Of a DNA stretch of 64,000 nt, positions 36,980-41,058 are shown one piece after another. The stretch lies in the IMG/VR virus record IMGVR_UViG_2718218482_000003; one strand, written 5' to 3'. The stretch's first letter is position 1, and each line of letters starts with the position of its first letter. The notes beneath the pieces were generated by a model, which searched no databases, was not told the DNA's origin, and saw only the letters and a list, made by a program, of their open reading frames with translations. The position numbers and the translations under genes were made by a program. Source of the DNA: a virus.

Positions 36980-37170
36980 TAGAAGATCCAATAGCTGCAT
37001 CAGTGTTTGGGCTACTAATTGCTTGTAGTGCTTGGTTAGGATACATCACTTATGAGCCGATAAAACAATGGGCATGGAGTGATGTGAAACAAAATAAAAA
37101 GGCCCACGGCAATGGGTCCTTTGAAAAAAAACAAGTTGTTATAAGTATATCACGGAAAGTAGGGAAATAG
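36952..37170 (+). CDS. Hypothetical phage membrane peptide
   Basis: One TM segment. Confidence 0.5.
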   Translation: MVRKGDDSMIEDPIAASVFGLLIACSAWLGYITYEPIKQWAWSDVKQNKKAHGNGSFEKKQVVISISRKVGK

Positions 37171-37173
37171 TAC

Positions 37174-37350
37174 ATGGATTTAATTGAATATCAAGTGCTA
37201 TTACCTAATAAGTTCTGGAGCTTAGCGAAAAGCAAAGATGAATTGAAACAAATGATTGAACAGTATTTCAAAGTTGGTTATCCGCATTATGAAATTCAAC
37301 GAATTATTAAAAGTGGACAAGCATATGTGGCAGTTTGTACAAGGAGGTAA
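37174..37350 (+). CDS. Hypothetical phage protein (58 aa; not in ORF track)
   Basis: MDLIEYQVLLPNKFWSLAKSKDELKQMIEQYFKVGYPHYEIQRIIKSGQAYVAVCTRR, RBS AGGGA. Confidence 0.65.
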   Translation: MDLIEYQVLLPNKFWSLAKSKDELKQMIEQYFKVGYPHYEIQRIIKSGQAYVAVCTRR

Positions 37351-37355
37351 TTATA

Positions 37356-38162
37356 GTGTCAGAAGTTAAATGGATAAAGCTTTCAACTAGTATGTTTGAA
37401 GATGAAAAAATACGTTTAATCGAAAGCATGCCTGAAGCTGATACCTTACTAATTATATGGATTAGATTATTAGCACAAGCCGGGAAAACAAATGCAAGTG
37501 GGTATATTTTTCTTAGTAAAAACATTCCTTACTCTGATGAAATGCTTGCAACGCTGTTTAACAGACCGATTGCAACAGTAAGATTAGCGCTTCGAACATT
37601 TCAACAATTTGGAATGATTGAGATAACAGATGATCAGTACATTTGTATTTCGAATTGGGAAAAACATCAAAACGTTGATGGATTAGAAAAAATCCGTGAG
37701 CAAAACCGATTACGCAAACAAAGACAGAGGGAAAAACTTAAATTGGAGATGTCACGTGACAGTCACGAGACAATCACGCGAAGTCACGCAACAGATATAG
37801 AAGAAGATAAAGAATTAGATATAGATAAAGAAAAAGAATTAGATATAGATAAAGAAAAAGATAAAAAGAAGAAAGAAAAACCGTCCCGTCACAAGTTCGA
37901 AACTTGTGACACCAATGGAGCTAAGTATTTGTTTGAGAGAATTAAGGGTAATAACCCTAAACAAAAAGAACCAAACTTTGATTCTTGGGCAAATGATTTT
38001 AGGTTGATGCGCGAAAAGGATAACCGTGAATTAAAAGAGATTAAAGATGTTATTGATTGGTGCCAAGCTGATCCATTCTGGCAAGGTAACATTTTATCTC
38101 CTAAAAAGCTACGTGAAAAGTTTGATCAACTAACTATTCAAATGAATTCTAAAAAAGTCTAG
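37356..38162 (+). CDS. Phage replisome organiser/replication initiator, C-terminal 23 aa cut off by IS110
   Basis: VKWIKLSTSMFEDEKIRLIE N-terminus; removing the IS restores ...SKKGVKNNDPIASNGAIYYNETEFDF. Confidence 0.88.
   Translation: MSEVKWIKLSTSMFEDEKIRLIESMPEADTLLIIWIRLLAQAGKTNASGYIFLSKNIPYSDEMLATLFNRPIATVRLALRTFQQFGMIEITDDQYICISNWEKHQNVDGLEKIREQNRLRKQRQREKLKLEMSRDSHETITRSHATDIEEDKELDIDKEKELDIDKEKDKKKKEKPSRHKFETCDTNGAKYLFERIKGNNPKQKEPNFDSWANDFRLMREKDNRELKEIKDVIDWCQADPFWQGNILSPKKLREKFDQLTIQMNSKKV
37751..37870. repeat. Probable replication origin: four TCACG iterons then A-rich tandem repeats
   Basis: TCACG at 37752, 37763, 37774, 37784; AAAGAATTAGATATAGATAAAGAA twice. Confidence 0.6.
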
Positions 38163-38291
38163 TGGTAATAAGTCAAGAGTAAAACAAGACTGATTCTTTC
38201 TAGGTGCAATTTTTTTCAGCATACGGAAATAGACCCGACCAAAAATGAAATTTTTTCGGGCCGTTTCCAAGATTGCGTCAATAACAAAATG

Positions 38292-39548
38292 TTATTTTTC
38301 TATCACGCTCCTTGGTGGCGTGTAGAGTTGATGGTTACGTAGTAGCGTATCCACCAGACGCACAAATTTTCTTGCGGTTAAGACGATGGCTCTTTTGTGT
38401 TGATGTTTGGGTGTTTCCTTGTATTTTTTTTGATAAAACGCTTGATATTCAGGCAAATATCTTCTTACAGAATTGGCAGCCTCAACTAAGTAATAGCGAA
38501 GATAACGATTGCCTTGTTTGGTTAATGGTGTATTTTCAGATTGATAATTTCCTGATTGCTTGATTTTCCAGCTTAATCCGGCATATTTAGCCAGTTTTGT
38601 TTGATCTTCAAAACGTTGGATTTGTCCGATTTCAGCTAATAATCCAGCAGCGTAAACTTTGCCAACACCCGGAATACTTGTTAGACATTGATACTCTGGT
38701 AAGACAATGACGAGCTGTTCAATCGCCTTATCAAGGTCTTTGATGCTAGCTTCTAGTGCACGAATTTCACGGGCGAGAACACTCAAAATAATATTGATAG
38801 ATTCTTGAGCCACTTCACCTAAACGGTAAGACATCGTAATTGCTCGTTGAATCGTTTTCGCTAATCCTTCCGGATTTTTAAATCGGCCGTTTCCTTTTTC
38901 TTGAAGTAAGGAAATGAAGTCGGTTAAAGGCATGTGTGCTAATTCATCTAATCCATAATCTTCTGTCATTAAGGAAAGTAAGGTTGCGCCGAATACGGAA
39001 GAATTCGTATCGCTATTTTTTAACTCGCGCGTGAGCGCGTTGCATTTGTAAGTTAAATTCTCAAGAAAATGTTGTTTCGTTTCTACAAGCTGCCCAATTA
39101 ATTGGTAACGTGTTCGAGTTAAACGTTGAAGCGCCATATATTTCTCTTCTTTAATTGGAGAGGTAGTATACCGTTGGATTCTTAAAAAGTCAGCGATTCG
39201 CATCGCATCATTTTTATCGGTTTTATCTTCATCAAATATTCGGCTGAATTGTTTGATTCGAAAAGGATTTTCAATTGTAACAACGGTATTGATACGTTGT
39301 AGTTCTCGATCCTCGTTAAAAAATGTAGCTGGGTGAAAGCTATACATGGAGGTAGATTCCATACCAATCACAATTTGAGAAAACGAGTAAACTTTTTGAA
39401 ATGCCAAGATTTTTTGTTTGATTTGGCTGGCACCTTCTATGTCGTTACCTAGACTATCTTCTAGAAGAATTGTCAACTGATCATCGTCTGATAAAAAACA
39501 AACATCTAGTTTCTCAGAGCTGACATCTAAACCAACAAATAATTTCAT
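38292..39548 (-). CDS. IS110 DEDD recombinase (transposase)
   Basis: GLDVS, GMEST, DKTDKNDA, YAGL...KQSG, KQGNRYLR motifs. Confidence 0.95.
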   Translation of the reverse strand: MKLFVGLDVSSEKLDVCFLSDDDQLTILLEDSLGNDIEGASQIKQKILAFQKVYSFSQIVIGMESTSMYSFHPATFFNEDRELQRINTVVTIENPFRIKQFSRIFDEDKTDKNDAMRIADFLRIQRYTTSPIKEEKYMALQRLTRTRYQLIGQLVETKQHFLENLTYKCNALTRELKNSDTNSSVFGATLLSLMTEDYGLDELAHMPLTDFISLLQEKGNGRFKNPEGLAKTIQRAITMSYRLGEVAQESINIILSVLAREIRALEASIKDLDKAIEQLVIVLPEYQCLTSIPGVGKVYAAGLLAEIGQIQRFEDQTKLAKYAGLSWKIKQSGNYQSENTPLTKQGNRYLRYYLVEAANSVRRYLPEYQAFYQKKYKETPKHQHKRAIVLTARKFVRLVDTLLRNHQLYTPPRSVIEK

Positions 39549-39619
39549 TTGGAAGGACCTCCTTTCATTAATAATTTAGAAAATGCTTCGATACTGTGGG
39601 ATTTCCCAGAAGCTCATTG

Positions 39620-39925
39620 CGTAACCACAACCTCGCCTACAAGAATACAGTGACAACTTTTTGGGGGCTACCTTTTGAACTACTATTCAAAAGCCCAATC
39701 CGCTATCGAAACAGCTAGTGTGTTGGTAGTGATAACAATGGCTCGGGTAACAGACTTAGTATCGTAGACAGAGCTACAGGAGTGATAAGCAAATTCCCGA
39801 TGGATCCTTTCCATACATCCATTGTATCTGAGAAATTCAACAGTATCGAAACAAATTCCGTAAGGAATCTTTTGATATATTTTAAGTATTACATTAGGGT
39901 GATTTAAAAACAGAAAGCTTTAGCT
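39620..39925 (-). ncRNA. Candidate bridge RNA in IS110 left end
   Basis: ATCACTCCT (39786-39778) matches insertion target TTCACTCCT 8/9, inside a closed loop; boundaries unknown. Confidence 0.6.
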
Positions 39926-39954
39926 AAACTATATTTTACGAGGAGTGAAAAACA

Positions 39955-40830
39955 ATGATCCAATTGCAAGCAACGGAGCAATTTACTACAACGAAACTGA
40001 ATTTGACTTCTAATCTATGTGAAGTTTGTGAAGAAAAAGGAATTAAACAACGAACAATGATATTTCAAGGTGAGGAAGTTTGTCCTAAGTGCTATTTACA
40101 AAAAGATCACGATAGATTGTATGCGGAATGCAACAAGTATTACAAAGGCGAAGAGGAACGGAGAAGAAAATCTTATTTTCATAATCATAGTTTAATCAGT
40201 GACCCAACAATCATGAATGCAACATTTGATAATTTTATACCTGAATGTGACGAAGAAGAGAAAAATAAAGCTCAAGCCGTAAAACATGCTCATAACTGTA
40301 TAAGTGATATGAAATATACATTAGTAGCTTCTGGAGGTGCAGGAAGAGGAAAAAGTCATTTAATGCATGCCATAGCTGAAGAAATTAATGAGAACGGAAC
40401 GCAAACCGTGTTGTTTATAAGTGAGAGTGTTTTATTCAAAAAATTAAAAGCTACATTCAAAAGAGATTCTGAGTTATCTGAGGATGATTACTTACAAAAA
40501 ATAATTGACGCAGATGTAGTGATATTTGATGATTTCGGTTCAACTTTAGGTGATTACAGAGATATCAATTTGAAAGCACTAGAATTTCACAATAAAAAAG
40601 GAGAAGGGAATATTACTGATCTCCAAAGAGCAACAAAATATATGAACGATACTTATATGACAATTTTTGACGGTAGACAAGGAAAGTCTAATGGAATTGC
40701 TACAAATTTAGTAGGTGCAGCAATCACGTATTGTTATGACCAACGAATCACATCTAGGATACTTGGTTGCAAATCAGCCATGACATTTAAAAATACGCCT
40801 GATAGACGTAAGAAAGCTTTGCCTTTTTGA
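39955..40830 (+). CDS. DnaC/IstB-like helicase loader ATPase
   Basis: CEVC...CPKC Zn motif, GGAGRGKSHL Walker A, IFDDFG Walker B. Confidence 0.9.
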   Translation: MIQLQATEQFTTTKLNLTSNLCEVCEEKGIKQRTMIFQGEEVCPKCYLQKDHDRLYAECNKYYKGEEERRRKSYFHNHSLISDPTIMNATFDNFIPECDEEEKNKAQAVKHAHNCISDMKYTLVASGGAGRGKSHLMHAIAEEINENGTQTVLFISESVLFKKLKATFKRDSELSEDDYLQKIIDADVVIFDDFGSTLGDYRDINLKALEFHNKKGEGNITDLQRATKYMNDTYMTIFDGRQGKSNGIATNLVGAAITYCYDQRITSRILGCKSAMTFKNTPDRRKKALPF

Positions 40831-40863
40831 TAAGTAATACATTTAAAGCAAGGAGGAATAATC

Positions 40864-41058
40864 ATGTGTACATTATGCCGTAATACAGGGATTATTTGTA
40901 AAGAAATTTATTCAGGTGTGGCTCTAACGGAAGGGTGTAACTGTGAGGTAGCAAAGCAACAACAAGAAGAAAACGATAAGCGTTGGCAAGCATGGTTAAT
41001 AAAATTTGAATCAATGAAACAAGAGTTGCAACGGAATCAACAACAAAAAGTAAGTTAA
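40864..41058 (+). CDS. Hypothetical phage protein (CxxC...CxC)
   Basis: GGAGG RBS; MCTLCRNTG...GCNC. Confidence 0.7.
   Translation: MCTLCRNTGIICKEIYSGVALTEGCNCEVAKQQQEENDKRWQAWLIKFESMKQELQRNQQQKVS

Follow-up and report, generated by a model that had tools for sequence, protein, structure and literature searches.

An IS110-group insertion sequence with a very probable IS621-type bridge RNA, whose target guide resembles the ribosome's anti-Shine-Dalgarno tail

An insertion sequence of the IS110 group lies within a prophage in the window analysed here (the whole stretch of 64,000 nucleotides from the viral record IMGVR_UViG_2718218482_000003). The first-pass annotation had proposed that 60 bases of its left end (39740-39800) form the target-binding loop of a bridge RNA of the type described for IS621 of E. 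coli (Durrant et al. 2024, PMC11208160; Hiraizumi et al. 2024, PMC11208158). As 85.7% of IS110-group elements have a predicted bridge RNA (PMC11208160), one was to be expected here. The strings quoted in support of the proposal all occur on the minus strand: ATCACTCCT at 39786-39778, GTAG-CTCTGT-CTAC at 39777-39764, TAAG at 39758-39755, TCGGG at 39800-39796, CCCGA at 39747-39743 and CACTAG at 39720-39715. The anatomy of the element, its ends and the covariation of its four guides and helices were established by comparison with related loci gathered from genomes (n = 19), metagenomes (n = 80) and a single E. avium genome (n = 12); about 60 related copies from plasmids, genomes and metagenomes were used to place all four guides. 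We consider it very likely that these 60 bases form the target-binding loop and that the left end of the element, which is intact, encodes a bridge RNA of the IS621 type.

The ends were determined by comparing the junctions in the window with those of three other copies: one 100% identical, on the B. thuringiensis plasmid p150790 (L001), one 95% identical, on plasmid pBMB240 (L002), and one 90% identical, on another plasmid (L003). The element is intact and occupies 38158-39940 on the minus strand (1783 bp excluding the cores), having the structure flank-CT/CGTAAAAT...CCACTAGA-CT/flank, with CT at both junctions in the window, in L001, L002 and L003, and at most further loci. Its left end, upstream of the recombinase gene, is non-coding and 392 bp long (39940-39549), and the right end comprises 134 bp (38291-38158).

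38292-39548, minus strand: recombinase gene, 418 aa, intact (Pfam DEDD_Tnp_IS110 and Transposase_20).
39942-39941 (left) and 38157-38156 (right), minus strand: CT cores, from junction comparison at four different sites.
39941-39949, minus strand: left target with core, TTCACTC-CT; the plus strand reads AGGAGTGAA, the Shine-Dalgarno sequence of the gene starting at 39955.
38150-38157, minus strand: core with right target, CT-TTTTTA, from junction comparison.

The recombinase (PF01548, 3.9e-24; PF02371, 4e-24) has a RuvC-like DEDD domain at its N-terminus and, at its C-terminus, a Tnp domain in which a serine is conserved. The DEDD residues and this serine (D8, E64, D111, D114 and S332) are invariant in the alignment of seven relatives (A4). 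The protein is homologous in sequence to the transposases of IS621 (8wt6; E 6.6e-9) and ISCro4 (9t56), and its motifs FVGLDVS, ME(S/A)TS and KTD..DA align with the latter. A second IS110-family recombinase of 370 aa is encoded at 22243-23355 on the plus strand and shares 34% identity with the first one over only 73 aa; hence the window does contain two kinds of IS110 element, as had been noticed earlier. The ribosome-binding site of the studied recombinase gene, GAAAGGAGG (39566-39558, minus strand), is followed by TCCTTCC, yielding a small self-complementary AAGG....CCTT hairpin (39551-39566) that is shared by nearly all relatives and could restrict translation of the recombinase. The guide of the element could, moreover, take this ribosome-binding site as a target in inverted orientation. 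Just past the recombinase stop codon there is a conserved stem-loop (38234-38260, minus strand; CCCGA...TCGGG followed by a T-rich stretch), kept with a different stem sequence in L010 and L018, which may be a terminator.

Rejoining the flanks gives, in the orientation of the insertion sequence, the target TTCACTC-CT-TTTTTA (39949-39943, the core, and 38155-38150). An ORF of 291 aa with matches to DnaA/IstB-type ATPases begins at 39955, its start codon being located 14 nt from the A of AGGAG. The element is situated between the replisome-organiser gene of the phage and a helicase-loader-like gene, and has cut off the natural end of the former; due to this truncation, replication of the prophage is probably affected. 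The replisome-organiser ORF (37335-38162, plus strand) now stops at a TAG that lies in the right end of the element. Its uninterrupted relatives are longer and extend about 17 bases into the next gene. Related uninterrupted sites were observed at the equivalent gene boundary in Bacillus plasmid prophages, AATTCTAAAAAAG/GAACGAAAAGCAATG (L103) and AATTCTAAAAA/GGGAGCGAAAAATAATG (L104). When viral contigs were searched for exact matches to the rejoined site there were none, the only empty sites being these related, non-identical ones on Bacillus plasmids, and neither the element nor an empty site was found in the phage collection. As for the other copies, L002 (L002:3300-4514) sits on the ribosome-binding site of a gene annotated as an ETX/MTX2-family pore-forming toxin, and L003 is in front of a ParA gene.

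The left end has a predicted RNA of about 270 nt (39852-39585), in which two long-range helices, P1 and P1b, enclose, in this order, a 5' hairpin, a target stem-loop and a donor stem-loop.

39840-39852, minus strand: P1, 5' strand GTTTCGATACTGT, paired with 39597-39585.
39585-39597, minus strand: P1, 3' strand ACAGTATCGAAGC, paired with the P1 5' strand.
39827-39836, minus strand: P1b, 5' strand ATTTCTCAGA, paired with 39610-39601.
39601-39610, minus strand: P1b, 3' strand TCTGGGAAAT, paired with the P1b 5' strand.
39801-39821, minus strand: P2, the 5' hairpin preceding the target loop, with a conserved GGAAAGG loop; possible in every relative.
39796-39800, minus strand: base stem of the target-binding loop, 5' strand TCGGG, paired with 39747-39743.
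39743-39747, minus strand: base stem of the target-binding loop, 3' strand CCCGA, paired with TCGGG.
39764-39777, minus strand: P3, distal hairpin of the target loop, GTAG-CTCTGT-CTAC; 98% paired, with compensatory changes at two of its four pairs.
39725-39740, minus strand: proximal stems of the donor loop, 5' strands CATTG..ATCAC.ACC, paired with 39632-39615.
39615-39632, minus strand: proximal stems of the donor loop, 3' strands GGT.GTGGT....CAATG, paired with 39725-39740.
39652-39707, minus strand: distal stems and terminal hairpin of the donor loop; three helices, 66-72% paired, 16 compensatory pairs.

In the enclosing helices, 92% of cells are paired in P1 (13 pairs, compensatory changes at 11) and 95% in P1b (10 pairs, compensatory changes at seven). 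The proximal donor stems are 74-77% paired, with compensatory changes at seven pairs; since the scored alignment was sequence-based, the donor-loop helices reach only 66-77% pairing. P2 as scored is 52% paired, its register shifting within the alignment. In the full structure drawn by hand (68 pairs), 80.9% of cells are paired and the covariation score is 0.447, compared to 38-46% and 0.10-0.15, respectively, when the 3' partners are slid. The minimum free energy of the left-end RNA is -95.1 kcal/mol (z-score -3.3 relative to shuffles), and RNAalifold, applied to 32 sequences, independently recovers P1, P1b, the TCGGG/CCCGA stem and the GTAG/CTAC hairpin. A covariance model, built for the target-loop domain only, has its sole match in the window at 39740-39825 on the minus strand, and also matches 27 distant loci outside the training set and four close relatives. 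No relevant Rfam 15 match was found over 37000-41000 at E up to 10. The folding and covariance of homologous left ends are in line with the loop as originally drawn, including the GTAG/CTAC hairpin as its distal stem.

The closure of this loop could, in principle, be different. The guides might be real and yet lie in a multi-branch loop, CCCGA pairing downstream and extending the donor stem instead of closing the target loop with TCGGG. The first consensus fold, obtained by RNAalifold from 14 sequences, did pair CCCGAG with CTTCTGGG, with compensatory changes present, and the G/A of CCCG/CCCA covaries with both candidate partners. However, when 32 sequences are considered, the downstream GGG is assigned to the 5' strand of P1b with its seven compensatory pairs, including CTC/GAG variants, and TCGGG/CCCGA becomes the consensus: this stem is 86% paired and kept across 32 relatives, and its outer C-G pair (13 sequences) alternates with U-A (14 sequences). 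Hence we set the first fold aside and regard a multi-branch arrangement as improbable, the closure by TCGGG/CCCGA, as claimed initially, being strongly preferred.

Within this structure, four guides were placed.

39778-39786, minus strand: left target guide (LTG) AUCACUCCU, core CU included; 8/9 match to its own flank, covarying with the flank.
39755-39763, minus strand: right target guide (RTG) GAUACUAAG, reverse complement CTTAGTATC; tracks the right flank in 21 insertions.
39713-39720, minus strand: left donor guide (LDG) CACUAG+CU; matches its own right end in six variants.
39632-39640, minus strand: right donor guide (RDG) GUAGGCGAG; CGAG pairs with CT+CG and UA with TA, two RNA bases being bulged.

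If the 9-mer is a target guide, its sequence should follow the site occupied by each copy. The 5' half of the LTG segment is variable and follows the left flank of each copy, and when positions 6-11 of the guide were compared with its own left flank, none of 20,000 shuffled pairings was as good (p ~5e-5; 29 independent insertions, 20 guides). At L001, the copy with 100% identity, the site AATCACTCCT agrees with the guide at 9/9 positions; in L003 both guide and flank read CATTTCCCCT, in L043 both read TCGCCCCT, and in L033 the guide is TCACCTTCT and the flank TCACCTGCT. Identity of 9/9 is retained where the recombinase is only 37-45% identical (L049, L060, L077, L086 and L101). The E. avium genome ATCC 14025 (G001; loci L105-L116) has three related elements with different guides, in 4, 1 and 7 copies. 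The guide of the seven-copy element is AUCACCUUCU; four of the seven copies are at CACCTTCT, and the other three sites are near-matches, AACCTTCT, AACCTACT and the one-base-shifted CACCTTCCT. There are exceptions to the rule. In L002 (L002:3214-3300), L030 and L109 guide and flank are offset by one base inside C/T runs (e.g. guide CTCTCTCCT and flank TCTCTCCCT), suggesting slipped pairing or later homopolymer indels, and L022 and L023 are at sites not matching the guide. Apart from these exceptions, the survey of other insertion sites bears out the assignment of the 9-mer as the left target guide.

The RTG also tracks its flank (permutation p ~5e-5, n = 21), with contiguous matches of 3-7 bases from the core. 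It ends with AAG, the complement of the core plus T, and a UAG ending pairs with the CT/A flank in L010 and L035. In the window copy and in L001 the match is limited to the three bases CTT, and TAAG, taken in the first-pass annotation as matching its target only in part, is indeed the 3' end of this guide; the natural RTG of IS621 likewise pairs just 4 bp (PMC11208160). In three B. thuringiensis variants both the LTG and the RTG differ and the donor loop is common, a natural reprogramming inside one species.

The match of CACTAG to the donor, noticed earlier and left unresolved, turned out to be the left donor guide. The LDG six-mers CACTAG, CATTAG, CACTAT, CACAAG, CGCAGG and CATTAC are each identical to the stretch from -9 to -4 in the right end of the element that carries them, and a single DNA base ahead of the core is skipped in every case. 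The RDG pattern x-UA-nn-CGAG is conserved, and x covaries with base 5 of the left end: U goes with A (L005, L010, L015, L017, L018, L026, L030) and A goes with T (L027, L034, L035/37, L042-44, L045, L046, L047/48, L050, L051). The window copy is mismatched at this first base, x being G where the left end has A. Nine RNA bases are set against seven DNA bases, as in the RDG of IS621, and the guides of IS621 are defined likewise (PMC11208160).

The structured left end could also be a mere 5'-UTR control of the recombinase, with CUCCU serving as an anti-Shine-Dalgarno sequence that masks the ribosome-binding site GAAAGGAGG, rather than as a DNA guide. Indeed, the recombinase gene has a conserved AGGAGG to which CUCCU is complementary, its transcript would include the RNA, the ribosome-binding site is followed by the conserved TCCTTCC, and regulation by a 5'-UTR structure is reported for ISPpu9 (PMC8450116). 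But the 5' half of the guide follows the flank of each copy, whereas the ribosome-binding region of the recombinase is constant, and the RTG, LDG and RDG covary with DNA outside the RNA. We therefore give a purely regulatory role very little credence, slightly less than the multi-branch fold, although the RNA may combine both roles, guiding and recombinase control. That the match between left end and flank is due to chance or composition, both being pyrimidine-rich and Shine-Dalgarno-like, is hardly credible: CTCCT is common to nearly all guides and flanks and does inflate raw match counts (mean cross-pair match 4.2/9), but the shuffling result concerns the variable positions 6-11, and the rare guide variants CTTCT, CCCCT and GCCCC are found at flanks with identical variants.

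The reading of the left end as a bridge RNA implies a way of transcribing it, and a candidate promoter is split between the ends.

38171-38176, minus strand: -35 hexamer TTGACT, located in the right end; upon circularization it would supply one half of the predicted promoter.
39933-39938, minus strand: -10 hexamer TAAAAT, positions 3-8 of the left end.

Joining of the right and left ends would recreate a predicted sigma-70-type promoter, TTGACT-17 nt-TAAAAT, spanning the right end, the CT core and the left end. TTGAC(T/A) is at an unchanged distance from the end in all relatives having a right end, and the left end begins with CGTAnnAT or CGTATAAT in all relatives. An internal candidate, TCGATA-17-TACAAT (39821-39849, minus strand, upstream of the 5' hairpin), was not retained, since L010 and L018 lack its -10 and there is an overlap of its -35 with P1, a covarying helix. 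Were it to function while the element is integrated, the resulting RNA would be without the 5' strands of P1 and P1b.

As regards transcription, RNA-protein binding and strand-exchange chemistry, we infer the following sequence of events. The element would leave as a circle, and end-joining across the CT core would build the promoter, from which the left end and then the recombinase gene would be transcribed. About 270 nt of the transcript would fold into P1 and P1b, the 5' hairpin and the target-binding and donor-binding stem-loops. In the donor loop, CACUAG(CU) would read the right end of the element, and GUAGGCGAG would read the core and the first bases of the left end, with two RNA bases bulged. 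The DEDD/Tnp recombinase would then exchange strands at CT, and the element would land antisense to a gene that retains its ribosome-binding site and start codon and loses its upstream connection.

Judged by sequence, the element belongs to an already known kind, the IS110-group insertion sequences with a putative IS621-type bridge RNA in the left end. Like IS621, it has a homologous DEDD/Tnp recombinase, a CT core, a long left end upstream of the gene, and a promoter, predicted here, rebuilt across the joined ends. The RNA also has the same layout, a 5' hairpin, then the target loop with the LTG on its 5' side and the RTG on its 3' side, then the donor loop with the LDG and the RDG; the LTG reads nine bases, among them the core, only a short RTG pairing occurs naturally, and reading is not strict at the left-donor base that precedes the core. 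The differences are in size and detail. The predicted RNA has about 270 nt, compared to 177 nt in IS621, lies inside two long-range helices (13 and 10 bp) and follows a poorly conserved leader of about 90 nt; one DNA base ahead of the core is passed over by the LDG; Shine-Dalgarno sequences, not REP-type repeats, are targeted; and the recombinase has 418 aa compared to 328 aa in the IS621 PDB chain, the alignment being significant in the C-terminal domain only. IS1111-type elements encode a seekRNA downstream of the gene, with reversed guide order and subterminal inverted repeats (Siddiquee et al. 2024, PMC11187229). Their recombinase belongs to the same superfamily, and in both cases an element-encoded RNA reads both target strands. 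The studied element, in contrast, has its guides and structured RNA upstream, in the left end, and its right end, only 134 bp, is not the long downstream one that houses the guide RNA in the IS1111 type.

The targets of the whole clade share one feature. Every guide has CUCCU or a close variant, down to a recombinase identity of 37%. As the left guide keeps CUCCU, the selected sites are Shine-Dalgarno sequences read from the opposite strand: in 25 of the 31 insertions with enough flank, the opposite strand has an AGGAG-like sequence and then a start codon (of an ORF of at least 40 aa) 7-15 nt from the first A, 11-15 nt in nearly all cases. Distant members likewise have an AGGAG-like opposite strand and a start codon. 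The first AG of AGGAG coincides with the core CT, the element being antisense at the 5' edge of the Shine-Dalgarno sequence, and hence the ribosome-binding site remains joined to the gene. The hosts of the clade include Bacillus, Enterococcus, Listeria, Ligilactobacillus, Tetragenococcus and Sporolactobacillus.

In a literature search for IS110 elements or bridge RNAs linked to ribosome-binding sites, the coverage of which is incomplete and allows no claim of priority, only the target motif of IS900 was found, CATGNNNNNNTCTCCTT (CATG-N6-TCTCCTT), from Mycobacterium avium subsp. paratuberculosis (PMC8141618). By its target motif alone, this IS110-family element is similar in its orientation-specific insertion at a motif that, on the opposite strand, reads as a ribosome-binding site with a start codon (PMC8141618). 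In the elements studied here the crossover is, in contrast, at the far (5') edge of the Shine-Dalgarno sequence, and the site stays with the gene. Bull et al. are said to have placed IS900, in 2000, between the start codon and the Shine-Dalgarno sequence. By analogy, its motif may be taken as a precedent in the family for the targeting of ribosome-binding sites. We know of no description of the link between guide and ribosome-binding site in bridge-RNA terms so far.

Thus, the target guide resembles the anti-Shine-Dalgarno tail of the ribosome, so that the element and many of its relatives insert at ribosome-binding sites. We tentatively propose, giving the idea as a whole not quite an even chance, that in this Bacillota clade of IS110 the LTG imitates the anti-Shine-Dalgarno tail of 16S rRNA and homes antisense to the 5' edge of AGGAG in any host, the 4-5 bases upstream of CUCCU choosing the genes, and that the 23-bp P1/P1b duplex could be the site where the guide is excised from the recombinase mRNA, e.g. 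by RNase III. Through this element, what is very probably a natural bridge RNA of Gram-positive hosts is mapped in full, the four guides and both ends included. A target that is a functional motif before most genes explains how such elements find sites in unrelated hosts, plasmids and phages, and each insertion would be expected to separate a gene from its upstream promoter or operon, the translation signals being spared.
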